From positions 1 to 44,262 of the forward strand of contig DASQVB010000492.1 in NCBI GenBank assembly GCA_035640975.1: 44,262 nucleotides of DNA, in the 5' to 3' direction. This DNA comes from Pseudonocardiaceae bacterium. GTDB lineage: Bacteria; Actinomycetota; Actinomycetes; Mycobacteriales; Pseudonocardiaceae. Under the pieces are notes generated by a model. That model saw nothing but the letters and a program-made list of their open reading frames with translations. It was not told the origin of the DNA and ran no database searches. The stretch's first letter is position 1, and each line of letters opens with the position of its first letter. Below, one piece after another: positions 2,386 to 44,262 of this stretch. Made by a program: the position numbers and the translations under genes.

Positions 2386-4548
2386 CTAGCCCTCCTGCCC
2401 CGCGGGTGACGGCGTGGACGGCATCGGCTTGCCGTCCTGAGACTGAGGCTTCGCCGCGTTGCCCATGCCAAGCTCCTCGGCCTGCGCGGTCTGAGCCGCT
2501 AGCGCCTGAGCTTGCTGCTGTGCTTCCAGGGACTGAAAGCCGCGGTAGACCTCCATCGCCACCTCGTGCATTTCGGGCTCCAGGTTCGCCGCGTCCGGGG
2601 TCTTCAGCCACGTTTCGAAAACCCACTTCTGGACCTCCACGTTGTCGAACTCGCGTGGCATCCAGCCGGGGATCTCGGCCAGCTTCGGCTCGCCCGTCGC
2701 GACCACGCCGGTCTCCGGGTTCACAACCGGCTGACCGGTTGCCGGATCGATCAACGGCTCCGGTGCCGTCAACATCGGCGCCCCGGTCATCGGATCGATC
2801 TGCGGGCGCTTGGGCATGTCCCAGATCGAGCCATCCAGGATCTTCTGGATGACCATGTTCGCCCGTGCCTTGTCGAACTCAAAGGACTCGATCAACGACT
2901 CCGGGCTGGCGCCGTTCATGGCGATCTCGATCGCCACCTCTGGCCGCATGTAGCCGGGGAAGTTCGCCTGGATCCAGCCGAGCTGCGACAGCATCGCCTG
3001 ACGCGAGCGCGTCTCGATCGTGGCCGGATTCACCGTCACGTCGACCTGGCCCATGATGCTCGCCCCACGGAAGGACTGCACCGGCTCCCAGCCAAACCGA
3101 CCCCGGACCTTCAGGATGCGGTCTTCGTTGTAATGGTGCTGGGCGAGCAGCAGGCAATGCCTCGCGATCGCCGAATCCCACGAGGCCAAATCTTCGAGGA
3201 AGGAGCTCCAGCGGTTCGCCGCCTGCTGGATGACCTGTTGCACCGCGCCGGCCGCGACGTTCGGGGCCACGTCCACGTCCGTGTCGGCGGCGACATAACG
3301 CATGTCCTGAAGCGCCCGGTCCAGAATCTGCATGAGCTGGCCTATCAAGCCAGGGTCCGGGGAGCGCTCCCACTCGGGCTTGTAGCCGCCCACCGGGTTG
3401 TAATAGATGATCTCGCCCGGCTCGTCGGATGGCGCCTGATCCAGCGAGCCCTTCGGGGCCAGCATCTGCAACCGCAAACCGCGGTTCTTTATCTCGATGA
3501 TCTTGTTATACGTGTCATTGAGGGTGCGCTGGAAGTCGATCAGCTCCCACGTCAGGCCCAGGTCGCGCTCGTTGTCGGGGTCCAGCCGGTAGGACAGGCG
3601 GTGGATGCACGGCTCGTCGAGCACTCGCGCCGGCTCGCCCCTGGATTCAGGCTGCACCATCGGATAGTGCATCGGCGGGACGATCATCCGCCCACCCGCG
3701 AGCGTGAGCATCCGGCCATCCCTGTAGCGCGGGGACGGACGCTCGAAGTACAGCGTCACCATCACCATGTCCTCGTCGGGCCTATCGATCGGGATGTCCT
3801 TCGTGGACGCGTCCGGTTGAAGAACGCCGCCGATAAAGCCGTGCATCTGCTGCACCTCGGCGATCGGCCGAGCCGTCTCCCAGGCATGCCAGCGCGAATG
3901 GTAGAACTCGGTCCCGGGCTCCCAGAAGACCTCGTTGCCGTTGCCCACCAGGACCTTGATCTCGCCCTCGCCCACCAGTCGGTCCGGGGAACCGTCCTCA
4001 GGGTCGCCGGGCACCATCCGAAACGGACCCACCATCGGATCGAAGTACGGCAGCGCGAACGCCGAGCCACCCTCGCCGATCGCCGTCGTGACCGCCTTCA
4101 CCCGGGCCTCGCGCAGATACCAGCGCTTGTAGCCCTGGCGCAGCAGCTTGCCCGCAAGCTGCGATGCCTCGGTGTCCTCCGGGTCCGTGGAGCTCGGATT
4201 GACCTCATAGCCGGGTACGCGCGTGGTGCTCGATGACACCTTCGCGTCGACCATCGGCCGGATGAAGTTGTACTTGTTGCGCACCCGATGGCGGGGCTTG
4301 CCGGCGTTCACGCCCGGGGCCGTGAACTGCTGATTCAGAGCGCCCTTGTTATCTAGGTAGAAGTAGGCTTCGCCCTTCAAAAACAGCGAGCACAGCCGCC
4401 GCTTGTGGGCGTCACGCTTCATCCATGCCCGACCACGCTCCAGGCGCTTGCGCACATCCGGCGGAACCTCGATCGGCTTCAACGGCGCGGGCTCGGGAGG
4501 CTCGTCAGCCTTGCCGAGCACGCGGCGGGCACCGTCCAGGACGCTCAC
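2386..4548 (-). CDS. portal protein (putative)
   Basis: 720-aa ORF, the largest in the head module, upstream of scaffold and capsid. ATGA overlap with the upstream gene. Assigned by size and synteny. Confidence 0.6.
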   Translation of the reverse strand: MSVLDGARRVLGKADEPPEPAPLKPIEVPPDVRKRLERGRAWMKRDAHKRRLCSLFLKGEAYFYLDNKGALNQQFTAPGVNAGKPRHRVRNKYNFIRPMVDAKVSSSTTRVPGYEVNPSSTDPEDTEASQLAGKLLRQGYKRWYLREARVKAVTTAIGEGGSAFALPYFDPMVGPFRMVPGDPEDGSPDRLVGEGEIKVLVGNGNEVFWEPGTEFYHSRWHAWETARPIAEVQQMHGFIGGVLQPDASTKDIPIDRPDEDMVMVTLYFERPSPRYRDGRMLTLAGGRMIVPPMHYPMVQPESRGEPARVLDEPCIHRLSYRLDPDNERDLGLTWELIDFQRTLNDTYNKIIEIKNRGLRLQMLAPKGSLDQAPSDEPGEIIYYNPVGGYKPEWERSPDPGLIGQLMQILDRALQDMRYVAADTDVDVAPNVAAGAVQQVIQQAANRWSSFLEDLASWDSAIARHCLLLAQHHYNEDRILKVRGRFGWEPVQSFRGASIMGQVDVTVNPATIETRSRQAMLSQLGWIQANFPGYMRPEVAIEIAMNGASPESLIESFEFDKARANMVIQKILDGSIWDMPKRPQIDPMTGAPMLTAPEPLIDPATGQPVVNPETGVVATGEPKLAEIPGWMPREFDNVEVQKWVFETWLKTPDAANLEPEMHEVAMEVYRGFQSLEAQQQAQALAAQTAQAEELGMGNAAKPQSQDGKPMPSTPSPAGQEG

Positions 4549-4772
4549 CGCAGAGCCTCGGCCATCGCCTCGCGCGAAACGTGGTGGGCTTCGTCGTCAT
4601 CCCAACCCACGGCAGGCGGGGACACGGGAAGCTGCCCCATCGCGTGCGCGGTCACCGCAACTTCCGGGGCCTGGATGCGTTGCAGCAACGCCTGGCGTTC
4701 ACGACTCGCGGACCACACGTACAGGCCGAAGGCGACCACCTGGGCCACGCACACGATCGTCAGGTAGATCAC
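4545..4772 (-). CDS. small membrane protein
   Basis: 75 aa with an N-terminal hydrophobic helix (IYLTIVCVAQVVAFGLYVW). Start and stop overlap both neighbouring genes. Confidence 0.5.
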   Translation of the reverse strand: MIYLTIVCVAQVVAFGLYVWSASRERQALLQRIQAPEVAVTAHAMGQLPVSPPAVGWDDDEAHHVSREAMAEALR

Positions 4773-5455
4773 GGCAGCTCCGCGAACTCGACATAGCTGC
4801 CCGCCTTGGCCGTAATGGCCGATGATGCGACCTCGCTGGCGAAACGAGCGACGACGGTCCCGGCGGCAGATGGTGCGATCACGCCCTCGATGATCGCAAG
4901 GTTCCCGGCGGCGACGCTGGACAGGTTGCTCGCGGCCGGAAGGTTGTAAGCGGTCAGGCCCGCGTTCACCGTCTCGCTGGTAGCCGTCAGGGTGTACTGC
5001 GAGCGGTAGGACACACGCGTGGTGGCCGGGCCGTTGATGGCCCAGCGCGAGCCGGTCGTAGCCGCCGCGGCCGTGTAGTCGACGGTGAAGCTGAAGCAGT
5101 AGCGCTTGCCTGCCGCGACGGGGAAGCCAAGCCCCGTCACGTCCTGCAATGTGTTCGCCACAGCGTTGGCGTTGACCACGTCAGCGCCAAGCACTACACG
5201 CGTGATGCCGGCTGCGCCCGTGGGACCCGTCTGCCCCGTGTCGCCCTTGACGCCCGGATCGCCCTTGTCTCCCTTTGGTCCGGGCACCGTAGAGGCGGGT
5301 CCGGAATCGCCCGTCGGGCCGCGCGGCCCCTCAAGCGAGGCGAGAAAATCATCCACCGTCCCCACATTACCCGCCTCCAGCCACAGCTCATAGGCACTCA
5401 GTCCGGACGGTCCTTCCCCCAGCCCGGGGATGTGAGGGACGTTCAAAACCGGCAT
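4769..5455 (-). CDS. collagen-like-repeat fibre / receptor-binding-like protein
   Basis: 228 aa. SAYELWLEAGNVGTVDDFLASLEG motif, then G-X-Y triplets (GPRGPTGDSGP..GPKGDKGDPGVKGDTGQTGPTGAAG), then a beta-rich C-terminal domain. This architecture is typical of actinophage minor tail/fibre proteins. Confidence 0.65.
   Translation of the reverse strand: MPVLNVPHIPGLGEGPSGLSAYELWLEAGNVGTVDDFLASLEGPRGPTGDSGPASTVPGPKGDKGDPGVKGDTGQTGPTGAAGITRVVLGADVVNANAVANTLQDVTGLGFPVAAGKRYCFSFTVDYTAAAATTGSRWAINGPATTRVSYRSQYTLTATSETVNAGLTAYNLPAASNLSSVAAGNLAIIEGVIAPSAAGTVVARFASEVASSAITAKAGSYVEFAELP
5207..5329 (-). repeat. coding G-X-Y (collagen-like) triplet repeat
   Basis: Residues G43-G83 of the 228-aa protein; coordinates derived from codon counting. 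Confidence 0.7.
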
Positions 5456-6090: not shown

Positions 6091-6384
6091 TCAAAACTCC
6101 ACGATGGTGTAGACCGTGGAGGCCCCCGTGGCGATACTCGCAATCGCCCCGTCCCACTCGTTGGAAGTCCACGAGCCGCCCGCCGCGTTGAGGCGAATGC
6201 CCTGACCGACCACGGCTGTGGGCGCCACGTCGCGCCTCGTGGCGAGCTGCAAATAGATCACCTGCGTGGCGTGATCGTTGACGATCGTTATCTCGCGGCG
6301 ACCCAGGTTCGCGCCAACCACGGCCGCGGAGGCCACACCGGCTGTGCCGGTCCCTGAGATGTTCGCTGCGAGGACGCCGCTCAT
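6091..6384 (-). CDS. hypothetical protein (97 aa)
   Basis: C-terminal 97 codons of track ORF 6091..7110. The ATG at 6384 overlaps the upstream stop (ATGA). The rest of that track ORF is an Arg/Pro/Ala-rich overprint of genes 6381..7093. Confidence 0.5.
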   Translation of the reverse strand: MSGVLAANISGTGTAGVASAAVVGANLGRREITIVNDHATQVIYLQLATRRDVAPTAVVGQGIRLNAAGGSWTSNEWDGAIASIATGASTVYTIVEF

Positions 6385-6731
6385 GCCGCCACCGGCTTGG
6401 TCTTCGCATCGCGACGCCGGTAGCCCGCGGACTCCAGCGCGTCGATCGCCTGCAACTCCTTCTTGGCGGCGTCCAGCTCGTCGGCCAGTTCGAGCGCCAG
6501 GTCCTCGGCCTCCTCGGCGCGGGTCTTCATCGCCTCGAACTCCTGGATGGACGGGTAGCCCAGCAGCTCCCACGCCTGCCGCACCGCCGTGGCCGACAGG
6601 TAGACATGGTTGTCGAAGCCGGGCATCTCCGAACCCGTGTCGATCCAACGCTCGCCCACGGCGGTCTGGCCGATGAACGGGATTGCCGCGCAATGCATCG
6701 GCCGGCAGTGCGGCCGATCCACGATCCTCAT
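6381..6731 (-). CDS. hypothetical protein with C-terminal coiled coil
   Basis: 116 aa, with ATGA overlaps on both sides. C-terminal EEAEDLALELADELDAAKKELQAIDALE heptad-like stretch. Confidence 0.55.
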   Translation of the reverse strand: MRIVDRPHCRPMHCAAIPFIGQTAVGERWIDTGSEMPGFDNHVYLSATAVRQAWELLGYPSIQEFEAMKTRAEEAEDLALELADELDAAKKELQAIDALESAGYRRRDAKTKPVAA

Positions 6732-7093
6732 CGGGTGCCCGTCTCCGAACGCACCGCGCCGGACAGGACCAGCAGATGCTCGGGATCCATGTCGCGCAGC
6801 GCCTCGCGGCCCTTACGCATGTCGCTGCCCTCCACCTTCGCGGTGATCTCGCCGTCCTCGATCGTGATAACAGCCTTCTTCGTGGGGGTGCCAAGCTCGG
6901 CGTCCTGAAGCGGCAGATCGTGCTTGTCGCCACGTCGCGAGCCTGGACCGGGCGTCTTGTACTCGACGGCGCCGCCCTCGTCGCGAGTGACCTGACCCTC
7001 GTCGCGCTTGTCGGTCGCGGCCTGCACGCCCGTGCCCTGCTTCTGCTGCTCACGATCCTTCTTGGTGTCCGTGTCGATGTTGCGCTCCGCCAT
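6728..7093 (-). CDS. hypothetical charged protein
   Basis: 121 aa, K/D/E/R-rich, with a strong SD (AAGGAGAGG) upstream of ATG 7093. Confidence 0.55.
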   Translation of the reverse strand: MAERNIDTDTKKDREQQKQGTGVQAATDKRDEGQVTRDEGGAVEYKTPGPGSRRGDKHDLPLQDAELGTPTKKAVITIEDGEITAKVEGSDMRKGREALRDMDPEHLLVLSGAVRSETGTR

Positions 7094-7146
7094 GGGACCT
7101 CTCCTTGCAAGGGGATGTGACGCGGAGCGTACCCCTCAATCCGGCG

Positions 7147-8721
7147 TCACGACAGGGCACCCATCGGCGGCGCCGGGCCGGGCGGGCCATGAATCTCATG
7201 GCCCTTCAGGGCCCTCCCCGGCCGCCAGCCCAGATTACGCTCCGCTGCCCGGGCTTCCATCTGCGGGTACCAGGGCCGCGCCATGCACTGGTAGCGCAAC
7301 GTGGCGAGCCGGTGAAAGGTGGAGTCGTCGCCTGGCCCGATCGTCTCGTCGTCGTCCATCTCCCAGGCGAACTCGTCGGCCTCGTCGCGCAACCCCAGGC
7401 AGGACTCGAACACGAACAGGCGCTTGTGCTTCAGACGATCACGGATCTGCTGCTGACCCGCCTCACGGTCGCGGTTGCCATTCATCGTGAACAATCCCAG
7501 ACGGGTGAGCTCGGACTGAACAGTGTCCCCCGTGGCCTGCGAACGCTGGCGGGCCGCGGGATCGATGACGAACAGGACATCCTGTCGCGTCAGCCCCCAC
7601 GCGCTCAGCATCCGATCGATGCCCGCCACGTACGCGGAGGGCGTGCCATCCTGGATCAACAGCTCGTCATAGATCCAGTCGGTACCGTGCTGATCGAAGC
7701 CGCCCGCCACCACGGCGGCGTTGCGGATGCCGGGGTCGATGGCCCACACGTGCTCAAGCGTGCGCACGAAGTCCGCGCCACGGGCCGGGATCACCCGGGA
7801 TTCCATCTCGGCGTAGATCAGCCCGGCAGCGTCCATGAAATCACCAAACTCGCGGGCCTGGCGCCAGATGTCGTTCTTGTAGGCCGCCAGGATGCGCTCG
7901 ATCGCCTGGCGCGGCAGCTTCGGGTTGTCGCGCATCGCCCACTTGCAGATCGTGATGTTGGGGTCCTCGCGGTTGCGCCACAGCACGCGCCGGATCCAGC
8001 CGACGTTGCTCTTGAGCGGCGTCATCGTGAACCACTCCGGACCGTCTGATTGCAGCAGCCGCGTTATGCACTCGTCACGGTGGCCCTGCGGCGGTGGCTC
8101 GTCGTAAAGCACCCAGTCGATCGTCGCCGACGTGAGCGTGGACGGGTCCTGCTTGTAGGTCTTGAAAGTGATCGTGGAGCCGCTGGCGAAGGTGAGCTGC
8201 ATCCGCTCGCCGTTGAAAGCCTTGCCCCAGTTGCCTCCCTTGAGGGCCTGCTTGGGACACCACTTCTCGATCGTCGGCTTCAGCGAATCGAAAATCTTGT
8301 CCTCGGTGGGGCACAAAATCCAACCGTGCGAGGGCGCCTCGAACTGCTTGAAGGGCACCAGGTGCCCGGGCACCAGCTCACGCGGCAGGACCTGGATCAG
8401 CGCCTTGACGATGCCGATCGTCGTCTTGCCCGACTGGTTGCCGCAGAGCGCCAGAACCACCTTCGTGATCGCCGCCAGGAAGGCAAGCTGCTCGCGCTTG
8501 CCGTCCGTCGGGCTCGGCTCATGCGGCTTGAAGGCGTTCAGCGGGTTGGCCGCCACGACGCGCTCGATCTCCTTGAGGATCTGCCGCGCCGCCTCCTGCT
8601 TCTCGGGTGGGAGCTTCGACAGATCCACGTCGGGCGCCCCGACGAAGCGCTCTAGCTCCTCGTACTGAGCTGCGATGCGCCGCGCCTGCTCCTTCAAGGT
8701 TGGCTCGGCGAGAGTGGCCAC
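7147..8721 (-). CDS. terL: terminase large subunit
   Basis: Walker A GNQSGKTT, Walker B VLYDE, and RNaseH-like nuclease motifs (WAIDPG, VIDPAA). Start trimmed to GTG 8721, the first in-frame start after the HNH stop at 8742. Confidence 0.85.
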   Translation of the reverse strand: MATLAEPTLKEQARRIAAQYEELERFVGAPDVDLSKLPPEKQEAARQILKEIERVVAANPLNAFKPHEPSPTDGKREQLAFLAAITKVVLALCGNQSGKTTIGIVKALIQVLPRELVPGHLVPFKQFEAPSHGWILCPTEDKIFDSLKPTIEKWCPKQALKGGNWGKAFNGERMQLTFASGSTITFKTYKQDPSTLTSATIDWVLYDEPPPQGHRDECITRLLQSDGPEWFTMTPLKSNVGWIRRVLWRNREDPNITICKWAMRDNPKLPRQAIERILAAYKNDIWRQAREFGDFMDAAGLIYAEMESRVIPARGADFVRTLEHVWAIDPGIRNAAVVAGGFDQHGTDWIYDELLIQDGTPSAYVAGIDRMLSAWGLTRQDVLFVIDPAARQRSQATGDTVQSELTRLGLFTMNGNRDREAGQQQIRDRLKHKRLFVFESCLGLRDEADEFAWEMDDDETIGPGDDSTFHRLATLRYQCMARPWYPQMEARAAERNLGWRPGRALKGHEIHGPPGPAPPMGALS

Positions 8722-8741
8722 GCCAAGATTCTCGCAGCGAG

Positions 8742-9161
8742 CTAGGTCGCCTTCTCGATCAGCGGCAGGATGTACGGTGCCGCCGAAACCAGGCAAAACA
8801 TCAGACCGAACGTGATCACGCTGCGCTTCAGGCGTCGTACGAACCGATTGCCGCGGGTCCGGCGCTTCGCCCGGCGACGCCCGTTCGCGGCGCGGCGCTG
8901 GGCATCCGCAACGGTGTGACAGCCGCCACGGCCGGCGCATAGCACGACGAGGTCCTCGGGCTGCTCGCATCCGAGGTTCTCATAGTTGTTGTGGTGGACC
9001 TCAAGGTGTCGGCCGATGAGGCGCAGCCGCTTGAGCGGTAGGCCGCAGAGCTGGCAGCGGTAGCACGCGCGCTCAAGCGCGGCCTTACATATGCGTCGCC
9101 ATTCTGGCGAGCGCAGATGCGCCTTGTACTGGGCGCTGTGATTGGGGCGCCGACGAAACAT
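8742..9161 (-). CDS. HNH endonuclease with C-terminal hydrophobic helix
   Basis: CYRCQLCG..LEVHHNNY..LVVLCAGRGGCH is an HNH/zinc motif. The last 25 aa contain VITFGLMFCLVSAAPYILPLI (codons GC3-rich, so likely real). 1-nt start/stop overlap with the upstream gene. Confidence 0.8.
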   Translation of the reverse strand: MFRRRPNHSAQYKAHLRSPEWRRICKAALERACYRCQLCGLPLKRLRLIGRHLEVHHNNYENLGCEQPEDLVVLCAGRGGCHTVADAQRRAANGRRRAKRRTRGNRFVRRLKRSVITFGLMFCLVSAAPYILPLIEKAT

Positions 9162-10666
9162 CAGGCACCCCCGTTCAGCAGCAACCGCTTTGCCGCCTCG
9201 GCCTCGGCACGCTGCCTGGCGTCCATCCGCGCCGGCCCCTGAACCTCGCCGCTAAGCACCCGGCGCAAGTGAGCGCCGGGGGACTCGCGCGGCGCGTAAT
9301 GCTCCACCAGCGTCCGGATGCCCTCGTTCGAGACGTAGAATGAGCGGCCCAGTTGCAACTCGGTCTCGCCGTCGATGACGAAGAACGCCTTGCCGGGAAG
9401 ATCCAGCGTCTCGGTCTCGGCGCCGCGCTCACGGGCACCCGGACCCAACGTCATGTCAGCGTGCAGGCGCTCCAATGAGCGGTGCTGGATGCGCTGGGGA
9501 TACAGGTCACGAGTCTCCATCGTGGCCTTGTTGGGGTTCTGCACACAAGAGACAAGCACCACGCCCGGTGCGCGGCCCTGAGTCAGGATCAGCTTCTGCC
9601 AACGGTCGATGTTCTTCTTGGCATCCGAGGTCTCGGCCAGCAGGTTGAGCACCGCCGCCTCATCCACGATCAACAAGATCAGCGGCTCGTCCGGCGTCGG
9701 AACGTGCTTACGAATGCCGTGCTTCTCGCAGTAGGCCATCCGCTTGTCCAGGCGTGCCACGACGTTCTCGATGACTCGCAGCATGTCCTCGATGTCCGAC
9801 TGCGCGTAGCCGCCCCCGAACAGCTCCCGGCCAGGACCCAGCTCCATACCACCCTTCGGGTCGATCGCGTGGACCTCCACCAGACCGTCGCGGATCGCGG
9901 GCGCGATGCCGTGCAGGATCGCCCAGACCAGGACCGACTTGCCCGAGCCGATCTGACCAGCGACGAGCAGATGGCTCCCAAGGATCCGCAACGTCCACGG
10001 ATCGCCGTCCTCGGTCAGGCCGACCGTGACGCGCTCAAGGTCCACGCTCTCAGAGATCGGTGGCGGGGCAATCGGCGTAGCGAGACGATCGACCTGGGGA
10101 AACGACAGCCAGAAACGGTCGTGGCGCTTGAGGTCCTTGTGCACCCGGCACTTCGCTGCGTTGAACGCCACCGCCAGGTCCGGCGCCGCGGCGTACCAGT
10201 CGCCGATCTGCCCGCGCGCCGGCTTGACCAGGATGCGATCCGTGTACGGCGTGAACTCGAACTTGACCATCCGCGGGATCTTGTCGCGGCCGTGTGGGAT
10301 AGGGATGTGCAGGAAGTGATGGCGCATCGTGGCGTTCCACTTGCGGCGGTAGATGAGATGCTTGCGGCGCAGGCCACCTACCCGCCAACCCGCGACAACC
10401 TCGTAGGACTCGCGGTCAGCCAGGCGCCATACGACAAGACCCAGGATCGTGGACAGCAGGACCCATTGGACGAGCGCGTAGACATTGCTGGCGCCCACCC
10501 AGAGACACATCAGGATCACGGCCGCCAGGGTCGCGATGCCGACGGTTCGCCGCAAAGCCCACGCCAAAAAGAACAACGGCCAGACGATGACCAGCAGACT
10601 GACGTACACGATCGTGGCCGTCAGCGGGTCCCGCGGCGTCCTGCCCAGATCCTTGGGAAGCCTCAT
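9161..10666 (-). CDS. FtsK/SpoIIIE-family DNA translocase, membrane-anchored (TraB-like)
   Basis: N-terminal 3-4 hydrophobic helices, Walker A GQIGSGKS, Walker B LILLIVDEAA. Start set to ATG 10666 (ATGA overlap with the upstream stop) rather than the track GTG at 10696. Confidence 0.8.
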   Translation of the reverse strand: MRLPKDLGRTPRDPLTATIVYVSLLVIVWPLFFLAWALRRTVGIATLAAVILMCLWVGASNVYALVQWVLLSTILGLVVWRLADRESYEVVAGWRVGGLRRKHLIYRRKWNATMRHHFLHIPIPHGRDKIPRMVKFEFTPYTDRILVKPARGQIGDWYAAAPDLAVAFNAAKCRVHKDLKRHDRFWLSFPQVDRLATPIAPPPISESVDLERVTVGLTEDGDPWTLRILGSHLLVAGQIGSGKSVLVWAILHGIAPAIRDGLVEVHAIDPKGGMELGPGRELFGGGYAQSDIEDMLRVIENVVARLDKRMAYCEKHGIRKHVPTPDEPLILLIVDEAAVLNLLAETSDAKKNIDRWQKLILTQGRAPGVVLVSCVQNPNKATMETRDLYPQRIQHRSLERLHADMTLGPGARERGAETETLDLPGKAFFVIDGETELQLGRSFYVSNEGIRTLVEHYAPRESPGAHLRRVLSGEVQGPARMDARQRAEAEAAKRLLLNGGA

Positions 10667-11196
10667 GCGACGCGATAGTCCTTCAGTCGATGCCACGCAA
10701 TGCGCCGACGCTTAGAGCCCACGCACACGATGTACTGGCCGGGCTCGATGTAAACCACCTCGCGGGGCCGCGCATGGCCGATACCTCCGACGATCCGGTC
10801 GCCGACCCTAAACGGACAGGCATCGACCTGATCCTGGAAGCGCGGACCGGTATGCCACGGGTCGTAGTCGGCAACCCAGCCTCGCGTCCTGACATCGGCC
10901 CTGGCAACCAGTTCGAGCAGGTTCACGCCGTCACGCAGGGCGCAGTGGCCCATGACAGCGAGGCGTTCCCGCGCGTGCTGGCGTTTGCCACGGCACATGA
11001 AGATCACCTCGTCCAACGGGAGACCGCCGATCGCGTCGGGCGGGTCGCGCATCAGGTCCGCTAGATCGAGCTCCTCGGCATCGATGCGCTGACGCAAGGC
11101 CATGCGTTCCCGGCGGCGCCGGAGGGACAATTCCAGGCCGTGGACCGCATGGGAGGGGGCGCCTGGTGAGACTCGGGGTGTAGCCTCGGCTTGCAT
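10663..11196 (-). CDS. hypothetical protein, first gene of the long leftward block
   Basis: 177 aa, with SD-like GTGAGG upstream of ATG 11196. No motif recognised; the start is uncertain (an internal ATG is possible). Confidence 0.5.
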   Translation of the reverse strand: MQAEATPRVSPGAPSHAVHGLELSLRRRRERMALRQRIDAEELDLADLMRDPPDAIGGLPLDEVIFMCRGKRQHARERLAVMGHCALRDGVNLLELVARADVRTRGWVADYDPWHTGPRFQDQVDACPFRVGDRIVGGIGHARPREVVYIEPGQYIVCVGSKRRRIAWHRLKDYRVA

Positions 11197-11221
11197 TCGG
11201 AAACCTCACTTCCGGGTGTGG

Positions 11222-11253
11222 GCCGCGGCGGTTTCGGGCGATCCCGCCGCGGC
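11222..11253. repeat. 10-bp perfect inverted repeat GCCGCGGCGG / CCGCCGCGGC with a 12-nt spacer
   Basis: Read directly. It lies in the presumed 5' leader of the leftward block. Confidence 0.85.
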
Positions 11254-11263
11254 TGAACTTCAT

Positions 11264-11279
11264 GTAGGGGGAACCCTAC
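11264..11279. promoter_or_regulatory. GTAGGG-N4-CCCTAC palindrome overlapping a minus-strand TGG-TAGGGT extended -10-like element
   Basis: Read directly. TAGGGT fits TANNNT and is preceded by TGG; no good -35. Candidate promoter/operator for the leftward packaging/structural block. Confidence 0.25.
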
Positions 11280-11292
11280 CAGACCAGGCCCG

Positions 11293-11372
11293 CGAAAATC
11301 CCCCCTCCCGACTCACTCGCCACTTCGGGCCAAGGCCACTCAGTGGCTCGTTCGGGGGAGGGGGGATTTTCG
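11293..11372. repeat. 17-bp perfect inverted repeat (CGAAAATCCCCCCTCCC ... GGGAGGGGGGATTTTCG) with a 46-nt spacer and nested stem
   Basis: Arms at 11293..11309 and 11356..11372. Nested 6-bp stem GCCACT (11319..11324) / AGTGGC (11342..11347). Confidence 0.85.
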
Positions 11373-11389
11373 TTCGCGAAGCGTTCGCG
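11371..11389 (+). repeat. direct repeat CGTTCGCG x2 with 11-nt period
   Basis: Copies at 11371..11378 and 11382..11389. Part of six same-strand GTTCGC copies between 11372 and 11993. Confidence 0.7.
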
Positions 11390-11855
11390 CGCCGCAGGCG
11401 CCGATTTTTTCGCCTTCGCGCAGCAGTGGCAGCGCGTTTGACGGCAGACATCACTAGTGGTGTCCAGTCCTAGCCTTTGAGCCTCGCTCCACAGCTCCTT
11501 GACTATCACTGAGTAAAGCGGGCAGGGAGAACCAAAGCTAGACCTAGAGTTCTTTGCTTCGGCTGATCCCTGTCCCATGAGCACTTAGACCACTCGCTGG
11601 GCGAGGTTCGCTCGGATCTGAGTCGAGCTCCTGAAGCTCTATTCGGACGCGCTGTTCGCCGTGCGGTTGATCGCGTCCCGGGGGCTTCCGTGGTGCCTGT
11701 CACGACTGTCCGCTCCCTGTCGGCGGGTGTCGCATGGTTTCGTCGGGCGCCTGGTATGTCACGCTCACCCCCACCAGGTTGGGGGTGTGAGGCGCGCCGT
11801 AAGGTGGTATGCTCCACCGGCGCGCTTCAGCAACGCGGAGCTTACCAGAGCTCAG

Positions 11856-11893
11856 CCGAGACCGCCACCCTGTCTGGCGGTCTCGGTCGTTTC
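11856..11893 (+). terminator. intrinsic-terminator-like hairpin A
   Basis: 12-bp stem CCGAGACCGCCA / TGGCGGTCTCGG, 7-nt loop, tail TCGTTTC. The same GTCGTT-type tail follows the terminators at 19311, 19751 and 21109. Confidence 0.5.
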
Positions 11894-11944
11894 GGGGTAG
11901 CCTTTGGTTTGAGGCTCACTTCCCAGGGCCTCGTGTTCGCGCAT

Positions 11945-11983
11945 CGAGGCCGCTATTCCCCTGGCGGCCTCGGTCGTTGTGTG
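11945..11983 (+). terminator. intrinsic-terminator-like hairpin B
   Basis: 9-bp stem CGAGGCCGC / GCGGCCTCG, 10-nt loop, tail GTCGTTGTGTG. Confidence 0.45.
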
Positions 11984-12004
11984 ACCGGTTCGCACACAGT
12001 TCTC

Positions 12005-12033
12005 TTGACAGGTGGGCAACCATGTGGGATTAT
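12005..12033 (+). promoter_or_regulatory. promoter P0: TTGACA-N17-(TGG)GATTAT, 6 nt before ATG 12040 (leaderless)
   Basis: Read directly: -35 at 12005..12010 and -10 at 12028..12033 (fits TANNNT). Confidence 0.6.
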
Positions 12034-12039
12034 TCCTAC

Positions 12040-12309
12040 ATGAAGACCGCCACTACCACCGCCCGAAAGGACATGATGAGCTTCTTCAATCGCGACCCTC
12101 TCCATCTGAAGAGGTTCGCCACTACGGCCCGCCAGCGGATCACGATCGCCGAGTCGCCCGACGAGCTCAAGACCCTGATCGGCGAGATCGACTCGATCCT
12201 TGTCGCCTTCCCGGCCGGTGGCCTGACGGACACGCAGCTCGCCACGCTCGCGGCGCTGCGCAGCCGCGCCGCCGCCAAGCTCGCCAAGCTCGGCAAGCTT
12301 GAGCGCTGA
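12040..12309 (+). CDS. hypothetical protein (89 aa), leaderless start
   Basis: Track ORF 11809..12309 trimmed to ATG 12040, which sits 7 nt after the -10 of P0. Sequence begins MKTATTTARKDMMSFF... Confidence 0.6.
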   Translation: MKTATTTARKDMMSFFNRDPLHLKRFATTARQRITIAESPDELKTLIGEIDSILVAFPAGGLTDTQLATLAALRSRAAAKLAKLGKLER

Positions 12310-12349
12310 TCTTCTCTTACGACTCAACCGCGACGCAGGAGGTAGCAGC

Positions 12350-12556
12350 ATGGGATGGTTGGATGGAAAGAGCGACGGCGGTTGGAACCGCTGGGGCGGG
12401 CGCGACAAGGACGAGGCCCGCAATCCGTGGGCCGGCAGGCGCCACGAGTCCACGGAGGGGCAGAAGAGCTCCTACAACGGCCGCTACAGCGAAGGCAAGT
12501 CCTGGACGGACCGCCATGGCTGGGGCAAGCAGGGCGGCAAGAGCCGCTGGGGCTGA
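12350..12556 (+). CDS. Trp/Gly-rich small protein (68 aa) with GW/WG motifs
   Basis: Strong SD AGGAGG 7 nt upstream of ATG 12350. Sequence: MGWLDGKSDGGWNRWGGRDKDEARNPWAGRRHESTEGQKSSYNGRYSEGKSWTDRHGWGKQGGKSRWG. Confidence 0.6.
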   Translation: MGWLDGKSDGGWNRWGGRDKDEARNPWAGRRHESTEGQKSSYNGRYSEGKSWTDRHGWGKQGGKSRWG

Positions 12557-16118: not shown

Positions 16119-16838
16119 TTACGAGGGGGCGGTCTGACCGTTGATCACCACGACGCGCTGATCCTCGCCGAGCGCGACCATCCGCCCGAGCAGATCCATC
16201 GCGGACCGCTTGACTTCGGTGCGTCCCGGCGTGAGCCTCTCGACCCACAGTGCATCGAGGCGTTCGATGTCATCCCACTTGGCATCGGCAGCGGTAGCGG
16301 CGTCTACGGCAGCGGCGGCGGCGTCTACGGCGGTAGCGGCGTCTACGGCGTCTACGGCGGCGATGGCTACGGTGTCGGCGGGCTTAACCTTCAAAGTCTC
16401 CACAACGGCTGCGCGCACCCGTCCAGTACGAGCGGACGCCGGGTCGGTGATCTCCGGGAGCGCCCGCATCTCTGCGGCGGCGTCCTGTGCGCCCGCGATC
16501 TCAAGCCACGTCGGGAGGGCGACACGGACCGTCCAATCCGTCGCCATATATCCGCGGGCCTGCTGGTAGCCGTCGCCAGCGGTACCGATGATGCGCGACA
16601 GAAACGGCTTGAGTGCTTCGCGGCCCTCCGAATCCGTCAGGTCGTTGTAGCGCCGCAAGAACGCGGCAAGCACGGGACAGAAACAGACCGGGCGGTCAGA
16701 CCAGGGCTCGCCGGCGACGTAGGACGCGAGCTCCATGATGCACGCGCCATCTTCTAGGTCATCGTGAGGCCCAGCCTTGAGCTCGATGGAGAGGGCCTCG
16801 TCGAGGCGGTTACGGCTGATGTGGATGGTTTTGGTCAT
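16119..16838 (-). CDS. hypothetical protein (239 aa) with internal Ala/Val/Asp repeat
   Basis: Track ORF with a conserved-looking ACIMELASYVAGEPWSDRPVCFCPVL segment. Function unknown. Confidence 0.6.
   Translation of the reverse strand: MTKTIHISRNRLDEALSIELKAGPHDDLEDGACIMELASYVAGEPWSDRPVCFCPVLAAFLRRYNDLTDSEGREALKPFLSRIIGTAGDGYQQARGYMATDWTVRVALPTWLEIAGAQDAAAEMRALPEITDPASARTGRVRAAVVETLKVKPADTVAIAAVDAVDAATAVDAAAAAVDAATAADAKWDDIERLDALWVERLTPGRTEVKRSAMDLLGRMVALGEDQRVVVINGQTAPS
16290..16378 (-). repeat. imperfect tandem repeat, four copies of GCGTCTACGGC (codes A-V-D/A-T-A repeats)
   Basis: GGCGTCTACGGC at 16299, 16320 and 16338, plus an overlapping copy at 16348. Read directly. Confidence 0.8.
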
Positions 16839-25783: not shown

Positions 25784-25986
25784 GCCGCGGCCAGGTTGCC
25801 GTCCGCGTCCTCGTTCGCCGCGTCGAAGCGATCGAGGTACGAGTCCCAGGCGTCGAGCACGTCCGGGACCCGCGCGGGATCCGTGACCTGAAAGCCGCGG
25901 CTGCCCGTGCTGTCGGTCAGGACGATCTGGGAGGGGCCCCGCACCATCAAAAAGTCGAAGGTGCGGCGGGACTCGGGCGCCGTCAT
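25780..25986 (-). CDS. hypothetical protein (68 aa)
   Basis: C-terminal part of track ORF 25780..26394. ATG 25986 overlaps the upstream stop (ATGA). Confidence 0.45.
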   Translation of the reverse strand: MTAPESRRTFDFLMVRGPSQIVLTDSTGSRGFQVTDPARVPDVLDAWDSYLDRFDAANEDADGNLAAA

Positions 25987-26333
25987 CGCGTGCGCGGGTC
26001 GACGGGGAGCGCGTCGAGCTCCAGCGCCAGGCGACGACGCTGGCGTGGCGTCAACGTGCGCAGCGGGCGACGGTGGCGCTGGATGTCCGCACGGTACAAA
26101 AGCTCCTCGGCGCGGATGTCGCCCATTGATCTGATCGCGGTCACGAGGCGCCAGATCGGCAGCGTCCCGAGTGGTCCATCGAGGTCGCCGTGGTGTAGCA
26201 GCCTGGCGACCTTGGTGGTGCCTTTCGCGTAGCTGAGCCGGCGGATGTTCTTGCAGGTCCGCGCGTTCGTGATGCGGACGTGGTTGGCGATGGCGCGTGC
26301 GGCGTCGCGCTGCTGCGTGGCGGTCGATTCCAT
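25983..26333 (-). CDS. actinobacterial IHF (mIHF)-like DNA-binding protein (putative)
   Basis: Trimmed to ATG 26333 (SD AAAGGA). PIWRLVTAIRSMGDIRAEELLYRADIQRHRRPLRTLTPRQRRRLALEL follows the mIHF pattern (V..LL.ALP.VGK.KA.E.....I...RR.R.L...QR..L). Confidence 0.45.
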   Translation of the reverse strand: MESTATQQRDAARAIANHVRITNARTCKNIRRLSYAKGTTKVARLLHHGDLDGPLGTLPIWRLVTAIRSMGDIRAEELLYRADIQRHRRPLRTLTPRQRRRLALELDALPVDPRTR

Positions 26334-26344
26334 GTGGTCCTTTC

Positions 26345-26539
26345 TCAGTGCTCGGTGAGACGCCCGAGCGCGCTTGACAGCTTGAGTTTCGCATCCATGA
26401 GCGTGTGCGCCAACTGCCAATGCGGCCAGTCGGGCGGGGGCTTCTTGGCGTCAGGTCCTGCGGGGAGAAGGTCGTCGAGCACGTAGGTCACGGCGTTGCG
26501 GGCCTCCTCGATGAGTTCGGTGTGGAGCTTCGTGGCCAT
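26345..26539 (-). CDS. hypothetical protein (64 aa)
   Basis: Trimmed to ATG 26539, just after the upstream stop at 26542. Confidence 0.5.
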   Translation of the reverse strand: MATKLHTELIEEARNAVTYVLDDLLPAGPDAKKPPPDWPHWQLAHTLMDAKLKLSSALGRLTEH

Positions 26540-31251: not shown

Positions 31252-31938
31252 TCATCCGCAGATCCGCAGTAGGTTGAGCAGCGTTGCCAGGTTCGACGTG
31301 CAGAGACCCGTCAACAGGCCGCCGACCTTCTGCTCAAGCCCCGCCAAGCGATTGTCCAAACCATCGACCACGGCGCTGTCCACACTGTCGCCCGCCTTGC
31401 CAGGCGGTCCCCGCAGTCCCTGCGGTCCCCGGGGACCGACCACACTCCGGCCGCGCGGTCCCCGTAGTCCGGGGGCGCCCGGGCGCCCATCAATCGCCGG
31501 CCGTGGAGTGGTCAACTGGCGCCGGGTCTTGCGTCGTGGAGGAGCAGGCACAATCTGTCCCTCGGTCACGGTCAGCACCCGTCGTACCGTGGCCGTGAAC
31601 TGCTCGCGGCACTCCGCGGTGCGGGCGCATACACGCAGGGCCTCGCGCGATAGCCGGGCCAGGTCAGCGGCGCTTGGGGACTCAAGCTTTATCAACCGGA
31701 CCAACAGGGCGGTGTTCTCACGCAGTCGCTCTTCGCGCTGCTCGGCCAGCCCCTCCCGGTTGAGGTGGCTCACGTATACGACGGACCCGAACAGTAGGCC
31801 GAGTGCCACCGCGCCGATCACTACGTGCACGCCCGTGAAGCGAACAGGTCGCTGGAGATGGCGCCAGGTCAGGGCGAGCACCATCCCGCCGGCGACGACG
31901 ACGACGCCTAGAAGCCACCACCACGGTAGGCCGAACAT
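31252..31938 (-). CDS. membrane-anchored collagen-like-repeat protein
   Basis: 228 aa with two N-terminal TM helices (LPWWWLLGVVVVAGGMVLAL; VHVVIGAVALGLLFGSVVYV) and a coiled coil. G-X-Y run GRPGAPGLRGPRG..GPRGPQGLRGPPGKAGD (nt 31390..31488), then a fibre-like C-terminus. Confidence 0.6.
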   Translation of the reverse strand: MFGLPWWWLLGVVVVAGGMVLALTWRHLQRPVRFTGVHVVIGAVALGLLFGSVVYVSHLNREGLAEQREERLRENTALLVRLIKLESPSAADLARLSREALRVCARTAECREQFTATVRRVLTVTEGQIVPAPPRRKTRRQLTTPRPAIDGRPGAPGLRGPRGRSVVGPRGPQGLRGPPGKAGDSVDSAVVDGLDNRLAGLEQKVGGLLTGLCTSNLATLLNLLRICG

Positions 31939-44212: not shown

Positions 44213-44248
44213 GTGCTTCTCCTTGCGAGATGTGTGGAGCGGATGCTA

Positions 44249-44262
44249 CGGCGCGGCCCGGC
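44249..44262 (-). terminator. right arm of the junction hairpin; candidate post-capsid terminator/attenuator once circularised
   Basis: Exact reverse complement of 7..20. Lies between the capsid stop (27) and the next gene start (44212) on the transcribed (minus) strand. No U-tract follows. Confidence 0.4.

Follow-up and report, generated by a model that had tools for sequence, protein, structure and literature searches.

We analysed the genome of a tailed phage, a stretch of 44,262 nucleotides from a Pseudonocardiaceae contig (DASQVB010000492.1) that we call the window, and in particular an operon on its minus strand that encodes a 177-residue protein (p177), an FtsK-like membrane pump, an HNH nuclease and the large terminase subunit (TerL). 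On balance, we think it somewhat probable that pump and nuclease form an accessory module, derived from conjugation, that would handle DNA at the membrane, and that they do not stand in for a small terminase (TerS). In the lineage of the window, the module heads the operon to which TerL belongs. Phage FtsK-like genes are scattered through actinophages and Bacillus phages without an explained role, and the locus offers a concrete lead to what they do. As far as our searches go, three things are new, namely the conserved tail-anchored HNH subfamily described here, the strict way in which it is linked in phage genomes to a Tra-like pump with a membrane anchor, and its alternation with a YdjM-like membrane hydrolase. 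Throughout, L0xx labels denote the contigs or loci that were compared with the window and P0xxx labels denote homologous proteins.

Architecture of the locus

The four genes and the features of their products on which the argument turns are as follows.

10663–11196, minus strand: p177, 177 amino acids (aa)
9161–10666, minus strand: FtsK-like membrane pump, 501 aa counted from ATG
10418..10627, minus strand: three predicted transmembrane helices of the pump, aa 14–83, Kyte–Doolittle windows 1.7–2.4
9332..9979, minus strand: motor core of the pump, aa ~230–445, with Walker A, the invariant DPKGGME motif and Walker B
8742–9161, minus strand: HNH nuclease, 139 aa
8754..8822, minus strand: predicted C-terminal membrane anchor of the HNH nuclease, aa 114–136 (SVITFGLMFCLVSAAPYILPLIE), Kyte–Doolittle 1.94, with a strongly basic linker before it
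7147–8721, minus strand: TerL, with a T4/P22-type N-terminal ATPase, 524 aa, GTG start at 8721

The list of open reading frames (ORFs) and their translation place all four co-directional genes, read leftward from 11196 to 7147, where an original prediction made from the sequence alone had put them. That prediction also held that every junction overlaps, which is correct for p177 and pump (ATGA) and for pump and HNH (TGATG, an overlap of 1 nt), but not for HNH and TerL, where a 20-nt spacer separates the HNH stop from the GTG start. We fixed this start because TerL aligns end to end with its homologue in the related phage L007 (74% identity from residue 1). TerL is recognized by Pfam Terminase_6N (27.9 bits versus a cut-off of 22) and by PHROG_2, terminase large subunit (6.7e-23), and its relatives among 50,697 phage records are only 21–26% identical.

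A membrane pump with conjugative kin

Profile matches and a structural model both show that the pump is a membrane-anchored FtsK αβ motor of the conjugative Tra/TcpA kind. The protein matches Pfam FtsK_SpoIIIE (PF01580; 37.2 bits versus a cut-off of 24, E = 2.8e-9) and the PHROG FtsK/SpoIIIE-like family (2.8e-24), and its Walker A (GQIGSGKS) and Walker B (LLIVDEAA) sequences lie where they were originally reported. An alignment of 30 family members shows the motifs of the motor core as invariant columns, preceded by a hydrophobic N terminus that aligns throughout the family. The AlphaFold model built from this alignment (predicted local distance difference test (pLDDT) 88, predicted template modelling score (pTM) 0.78) runs from three membrane helices through a long linker helix and a domain rich in beta structure to a RecA-type motor. 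Its helices, at residues 14–39, 41–57 and 59–83, fall on the hydrophobic stretches; the pump had been credited with 3–4 such helices, and both the Kyte–Doolittle profile and the model settle the number at three, not four.

Foldseek searches match the motor core to subunits of the FtsK beta domain hexamer. The best matches of the model are FtsK motors on double-stranded DNA (6t8o/6t8b/2iut, E about 1e-19, template modelling (TM) score on the target 0.61–0.66), followed by TcpA (1.6e-17), then by EccC/EssC and, more weakly, by HerA complexes. TcpA is also the only sequence match of the pump in the PDB (phmmer, 2.8e-5). Full-length kin of the pump are found on small actinomycete plasmids and integrative and conjugative elements of actinomycetes (AICEs), with 31–36% identity over 78–90% of the length (tblastn, plasmid collection). 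They include pMR2, a Micromonospora AICE with the gene map int-xis-rep-DUF2637-Tra. Matches in the phage collection are confined to the motor, at 24–26% identity. Against NCBIfam plasmid_TraB (NF041214) the pump scores 21.4 bits and pMR2 Tra scores 22.7, with a cut-off of 800; on these scores the two belong to a Tra-like lineage apart from canonical Streptomyces TraB. The earlier view of the pump as TraB-like and membrane-anchored is thus upheld by kin among AICE and plasmid Tra proteins and TcpA, in sequence as well as in fold. The family as a whole holds 220 relatives at E ≤ 1e-10; a scan of viral contigs with the single pump sequence returned nothing, and the alignment-based scan succeeded.

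One pump homologue, on contig L005 (47% identical), has downstream of it genes that resemble VirB2, VirB6 and VirB4, together with an SLT transglycosylase gene and one of the YdjM type. These genes, which resemble those of a type IV secretion system (T4SS), point to a conjugative ancestry of the pump. The whole string (L005 10001–18589) reads VirB2/TrbC-like, TrbL/VirB6-like, PrgI-like, TraC/VirB4-like (867 aa), SLT and YdjM-like, with all matches below the Pfam cut-offs. L005 is otherwise phage-like, with an AAA_24 protein that has a LAGLIDADG match, and the related contig L008 has ERF. From its gene content, L005 may be a hybrid of a phage and a conjugative element.

Comparison with characterized systems places the pump more closely. 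Like pMR2 Tra and Streptomyces TraB, it joins an N-terminal membrane anchor and an FtsK αβ motor in one polypeptide, encoded by a single gene without a relaxase. TcpA of the Clostridium perfringens plasmid pCW3 (PDB 6o1w–6o1z), which leads the PDB matches in sequence and ranks near the top in structure, is membrane-anchored as well, and the L005 homologue precedes T4SS-like genes just as tcpA does; the window, however, lacks VirB4, VirB6 and pilin-like genes, and the identity to TcpA is only about 20%. AICEs are elements of 9–24 kb with integrase/excisionase, Rep, Tra, Spd (DUF2637) and Pif/Kor modules. The window falls outside this class, being a 44-kb genome of a tailed phage that has no integrase, Rep or Spd/DUF2637 genes, and its pump is partnered with a membrane nuclease or hydrolase, a partner that to our knowledge does not belong to AICE transfer. 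FtsK/SpoIIIE motors borne by other phages (in Cluster J mycobacteriophages, such as Omega gp203, in the Streptomyces phage Gilgamesh, gp10, and in the Bacillus phages Gamma, Cherry and Wbeta) share 24–26% identity with the pump in the motor only, and none has been described with a tethered HNH. The Cluster J FtsK-like proteins have no membrane domain and do have a gamma domain (PMC3706429); the window pump is the reverse, with a membrane domain and no gamma domain.

A tail-anchored HNH subfamily

The gene that follows the pump is predicted to encode a tail-anchored HNH endonuclease. Its product matches PHROG HNH families down to 1.2e-7, and its best match in the PADLOC defence library is the ZorE HNH (1.9e-7); Pfam PF01844 does not reach 0.01 on the window protein, yet it is precomputed on the homologues P0147 and P0161. 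The HNH core (aa ~30–85, CxxC...HH...CxxxxxCH), which agrees with the ββα-Me pattern of a catalytic His and Zn-binding Cys pairs, contains the invariant residues C36, C39, H56, H57, C75, C81 and H82. About 29 homologues, at 52–81% identity, are built from the same three parts, namely this core, an Arg/Lys-rich basic linker of 15–25 residues and a tail of ~20 hydrophobic residues ending in ...VLP. The hydrophobic C-terminal helix that had first drawn attention to this protein is therefore confirmed and is conserved in all of these ~29 homologues. It was seen in each of the seven contigs examined, and distant HNH relatives (50% identity or less) are without it. Because the anchor is kept in the ~29 homologues and absent from the distant relatives, we take it to be the defining feature of the subfamily.

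By the positive-inside rule, the basic linker should place the nuclease domain in the cytoplasm. In two contigs (L004 2079–2849 and L006 5732–6505) the HNH protein has an extra domain of ~115 aa past the membrane helix, with no family match; if this topology holds, the extra domain would lie outside the cytoplasm. A search of 185,579 species-representative genomes yielded no close homologue of the subfamily.

The nuclease tracks the pump

Synteny with other contigs supplies the decisive evidence. Seven contigs that encode the tail-anchored HNH could be read (the window, L004, L006, L010 (=L031), L011, L032 and L033), and all seven also carry a pump of the same family, 0.15–8 kb away, with E-values of 1e-103 to 1e-195 for the pump hidden Markov model. 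The pair occurs in four gene arrangements and is adjacent to TerL in the window only. For the distant, tail-less HNH relatives, an FtsK-family match is found nearby in just 2 of 73 loci. A Fisher test by hand of 7/7 versus 2/73 gives about 1e-8, a figure that exaggerates independence, since the seven contigs are partly related to one another.

The two nearest relatives of the window phage, L003 (TerL 59%, portal 73%, capsid 90% and pump 62% identical) and L007 (TerL 74% and pump 57%), still have the pump upstream of TerL, at a distance of one or two genes. In L003 and L007 alike, the slot between pump and TerL holds a YdjM-like inner-membrane metal hydrolase instead of the HNH, and p177 is absent from the position upstream of the pump. 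A YdjM-like gene adjoins the pump in at least seven loci, and most pump loci have neither HNH nor YdjM as a neighbour. In terms of gene neighbourhoods, the stable unit is a membrane pump plus a membrane-bound hydrolase, not an HNH plus a terminase.

The HNH of the window does share with the gp74-type HNH proteins of HK97-like cos phages a small size, a position immediately upstream of TerL and membership of the same operon. Unlike them, the subfamily to which it belongs is marked by a conserved anchor in the membrane, and in other contigs it accompanies the pump and not TerL. The conserved terminase linkage that marks the HK97 type is missing, as L003 and L007 share the TerL but have no HNH. 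The parallel with an HK97-type packaging cofactor, drawn in the original prediction, is accordingly weakened by the two closest relatives, where the YdjM-like hydrolase replaces the HNH; and the placement of two membrane-tethered enzymes where TerS is expected turns out to be specific to the window lineage, with the pair lying far from TerL in the other phage contigs.

A called gene of 288 aa lies upstream of the pump in L003 (9083–9949) and overlaps DNA that aligns with the noncoding region of the window, including a hairpin described below. We considered it as a counterpart of p177 and rejected it, as it shows no similarity, has no homologues and sits over conserved noncoding DNA. It is probably a spurious call, which would make the pump the first gene of the L003 operon, as it is in L007.

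p177 and the small terminase

p177 has no match in Pfam, PHROG, NCBIfam or PADLOC. An exhaustive search of representative genomes recovered 102 homologues, mostly of ~110 aa, that cover residues 20–120; the last 50 residues match another set of small proteins, and this C-terminal stretch of ~50 aa is a small domain of its own (CPFxVGDRI...KIAWxxLKxYR). The profile of the p177 family matches mIHF (6tob) at E = 1.4e-4 over about 40 residues and sIHF (4itq) at 0.019. In the AlphaFold model, which covers the protein up to its C-terminal 50 aa, pLDDT exceeds 90 for aa 20–110. The top Foldseek matches of this model are to sIHF (6bek/4itq), superposed over its whole length with TM scores of 0.67–0.68 and a root-mean-square deviation of 3.1 Å, at weak E-values of 0.06–0.5; no TerS is among them. 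From the profile match and this fold match at weak E-values we infer that the N-terminal domain (aa ~20–115) is actinobacterial IHF-like and predicted to bind DNA. p177 differs from mIHF and sIHF in its extra C-terminal domain and in having no match to NCBIfam actino_IHF. Searches with p177 and with a typical member of its family gave no match in either the phage or the plasmid collection.

The homologue of p177 in the L003 phage (P0169) is flanked by the recombination genes on one side and by another IHF-like gene on the other, and TerL is a long way off. Seen against this arrangement, p177 looks like an IHF-like protein that has moved to the operon head in the window only. The window, too, encodes a second IHF-like protein (145 aa, 25983–26420, minus strand), situated in the recombination module and matched by NCBIfam actino_IHF (6.4e-10) and Pfam H2TH_5. 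In the relative phage (L083 4447–5173), the homologues of both IHF-like proteins are adjacent, overlapping genes.

No TerS is recognizable near TerL or elsewhere in the window by Pfam, PHROG or NCBIfam, so that this part of the original prediction holds, with p177 showing an IHF-like fold and no family match. We rejected p177 itself as a TerS on the grounds of its IHF-like fold, its lack of a match to any TerS family and its lack of conservation upstream of TerL. Two small genes lie directly after TerL (6381..7093):

6728–7093, minus strand: protein of 121 aa
6381–6731, minus strand: protein of 116 aa

Their products are 85% and 68% identical, respectively, to those of L003, above the 59% of TerL. 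The 121-aa protein is highly charged. Neither has a match in Pfam, PHROG or the PDB, and a PDB profile search with the 116-aa protein gave noise. From the look of its sequence, a DNA-binding-like N terminus followed by a coiled coil, the 116-aa protein is a possible TerS candidate. These two conserved small genes offer the best putative candidates for TerS, and they and the conserved hairpin ahead of the operon are useful leads to the way in which packaging is initiated.

Proposed function and alternative explanations

We propose that the pump would form a hexamer on the cytoplasmic side of the membrane and translocate double-stranded DNA with ATP. A hydrolase, either the HNH or a YdjM-like protein, would be kept next to it, its catalytic domain facing the cytoplasm, and would cut the DNA on which the pump works. 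For loading, p177 may bend the DNA or mark it. By analogy with conjugation, one possible role, which we put forward tentatively, is that phage DNA would pass, independently of virions, through a membrane or septum to reach an adjacent cell or compartment, while the nuclease makes or trims an end. This export role is favoured by the conjugative ancestry of the pump and by the precedent of the SpdB2 homologues of phiC31 and VWB, for which a part in the spread of phage DNA has been suggested (PMC4447253). By analogy with host defences, interception and destruction of rival incoming DNA is a less likely role for the same parts. A bolder reading, which we think rather less likely than not, is that some actinobacterial phages carry a previously undescribed two-part 'DNA gate', in which a conjugation-type pump and a hydrolase anchored in the same membrane, either a tail-anchored HNH or a YdjM-like enzyme, would push phage genomes virion-free into neighbouring cells or hyphal compartments, or would shred rival DNA on its way through the envelope. 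If true, such a gate would give phages a function of a new class, assembled from the parts of conjugation. Were the pump to export phage DNA, infection could spread from cell to cell without particles, which would blur the line between phages and conjugative elements; were it to destroy incoming DNA, it would be a new phage-encoded exclusion system. Pump and HNH together take up only two genes and about 640 codons.

Several observations weigh against a conjugation-derived module, and against export in particular. The window has no Spd protein. It also has no integrase or plasmid-maintenance gene, and hence no obvious long-lived donor state for conjugation-like spread. The C-terminal winged helix of TraB binds 8-bp TRS repeats in the clt locus. 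The window pump differs in both respects. The original prediction had pointed to its C terminus as a place to look for a winged helix of the TraB/FtsK-gamma type, and the AlphaFold model contains none, the motor being followed only by short helices (447–457, 463–472 and 483–497); this tail has no beta wing, is of lower pLDDT and is not conserved across the family. Nor were clt/TRS-like repeats found, in that no clustered over-represented 8–10-mer occurs in the window outside coding repeats, although a divergent cis site could escape a search of this kind. Because the pump lacks a gamma or winged-helix domain and the window lacks a clt/TRS-like cluster, no cargo could be assigned. A nuclease beside a pump would, by analogy, fit the destruction of DNA better than its faithful transfer, and the tight coupling with TerL, which three phages share, could point to a role related to packaging.

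A packaging role is the alternative closest to the original prediction. It would have pump, HNH and p177 replace or assist TerS, recognize and cut concatemers at the membrane and pass them to TerL, with the HNH as an HK97-type cofactor; we judge it improbable. It gains from the want of a recognizable TerS near TerL, from the place of the pump, which in three related phages (57–62% identity) precedes TerL at a distance of one or two genes, from the overlapping p177/pump and pump/HNH junctions, and from a weak match of the pump to PHROG 2666, 'terminase large subunit' (1.2e-3). p177, as a protein of the DNA-bending type, would moreover parallel IHF, which serves lambda terminase as a DNA-bending protein. 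Yet the pump and HNH pair is not adjacent to TerL in L004, L006, L010, L011, L032 or L033, the HNH is absent from the two closest relatives though the TerL is the same, and p177 is missing at that position in both, its homologue lying in the recombination module. The kin of the pump are conjugative Tra proteins, and the conserved small genes after TerL are themselves TerS candidates. That the HNH tracks the pump and not the terminase argues against an HK97-type cofactor as well as against replacement of TerS. Among the readings first offered for this locus, then, a conjugation-like export or superinfection function survives, whereas replacement of TerS is disfavoured because the HNH tracks the pump and the placement is lineage-specific. 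An altogether different possibility, that a stand-alone FtsK-like moron and an ordinary selfish or homing HNH with a functionless tail are incidental neighbours, strikes us as very improbable. FtsK-like genes without an assigned role are indeed common in actinophages and Bacillus phages, and HNH genes are frequent mobile insertions near terminase genes; but chance adjacency does not account for a tail and basic linker kept in ~29 homologues at 52–81% identity, for the co-occurrence of pump and tail-anchored HNH in four arrangements, or for its near absence among tail-less relatives (2/73).

Exclusion of, or conflict with, other elements deserves more weight, though we still regard it as doubtful. 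Here the pump would catch incoming phage, AICE or plasmid DNA and feed it to the tethered nuclease, as an analogue of HerA–nuclease or Zorya systems. FtsK/HerA ATPases paired with nucleases are a recognized theme of biological conflict, and 'HerA/FtsK capture' systems have been proposed to intercept invader DNA (PMC10853773). The strict tie of the nuclease to the pump (7/7 contigs) fits such a function, as do the domain-level matches of the HNH to ZorE (1.9e-7) and of the pump motor to SspH (8.5e-12, PADLOC) and the presence of HerA–nuclease defence complexes among the weaker Foldseek matches of the pump. The variable slot between pump and TerL, filled by HNH or YdjM, also recalls cargo or moron sites. 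However, most pump loci have no HNH or YdjM neighbour, so the pump works nuclease-free in many elements; the defence matches stay at the domain level, far under family cut-offs (16 bits versus 600 for NCBIfam ZorE); a component for self/non-self discrimination was not found; and a position at the head of an operon that runs into late genes would be unusual for exclusion genes. With HerA–NurA, HerA–Sir2/DUF4297, DndH/SspH and Zorya–ZorE the locus shares the pairing of an ATPase of the FtsK/HerA superfamily with a nuclease, which in Zorya sits at the membrane. It differs from them in being phage-encoded instead of part of a host island, and in having no ZorAB, NurA, Sir2 or Dnd/Ssp partners; with domain-level matches and no partner genes in the window, it belongs neither to Zorya type II nor to Ssp/Dnd.

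Noncoding DNA upstream of the operon

About 1.1 kb of noncoding DNA separates p177 from divergent early genes, and it contains the following elements.

11293..11372: perfect 17-bp inverted repeat (CGAAAATCCCCCCTCCC / GGGAGGGGGGATTTTCG) with a 46-nt spacer, ~100 nt upstream of p177
11505..11775: conserved noncoding block of about 290 nt, 85–88% identical to L005 8352–8647

The same hairpin is found upstream of the L003 pump gene (about 9650–9735) with two compensatory base-pair changes, which indicate that selection maintains the pairing. Possible roles for the hairpin are those of an operator, of a structure at the 5' end of the transcript, or of a DNA site for packaging or translocation. No other notable inverted or direct repeats occur in 11100–12400.

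The conserved block aligns with L005 by blastn at 81.5% over 298 nt. It is intergenic in both genomes, lies 1.4 kb upstream of the L005 pump gene and is 85–88% identical although the window and L005 pumps are only 47% identical; segments flanking it also match L003 and L006. Rfam gave nothing at the gathering threshold across the window and, at E ≤ 1 over 11150–12350, only a chance-level match to CcsR1. The folding z-score of the block is −1.4 on both strands, which is not significant, and exact-pattern scans of viral and metagenome contigs for it returned nothing. Hairpin and block could be regulatory elements, packaging sites or sites at which the translocase is loaded.

The phage genome

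The window is a complete, circularly assembled phage genome of 44 kb, as judged from a G+C-rich hairpin that is split across its ends and from the length of the source contig (44,273 bp).

1–40 and 44230–44262: split G+C-rich hairpin (GGCGCGGCCCGGC / GCCGGGCCGCGCC); the window falls 11 bp short of the source contig

This hairpin is probably a terminator after the capsid gene. Besides the operon described above, the window encodes a P22-type portal, a major head protein (HK97-type capsid), tail and other virion proteins and an endolysin, together with recombination genes (Rad52-like, PD-(D/E)XK and RusA) and one helix-turn-helix regulator. No integrase- or Rep-type Pfam match was obtained among window ORFs of at least 150 aa, and neither an integrase nor a plasmid-maintenance gene was found in the window, nor is an SpdB2-like/Spd (DUF2637) protein with four transmembrane helices present in it. 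A search of the 50,697 phage records with positions 7000–12000 found no relative at the DNA level. It is a new actinobacterial phage.

Some further genes stand out. A collagen-repeat (G-x-y) protein encoded at 4769–5455 (minus strand) is tail-fibre-like and unusually placed, between the TerL and portal genes, and a second one (31252–31938, minus strand) starts with two membrane helices. A gene for a 75-aa protein with a single transmembrane helix (4545–4772), which is kept in L003, immediately precedes the portal gene. Finally, the 12-mer GGCGTCTACGGC occurs four times at 16298–16360, at a spacing of 9–21 nt, within an ORF (16119–16838) whose 239-aa product has no family match; the array could be a coding repeat or the iterons of a replication origin.

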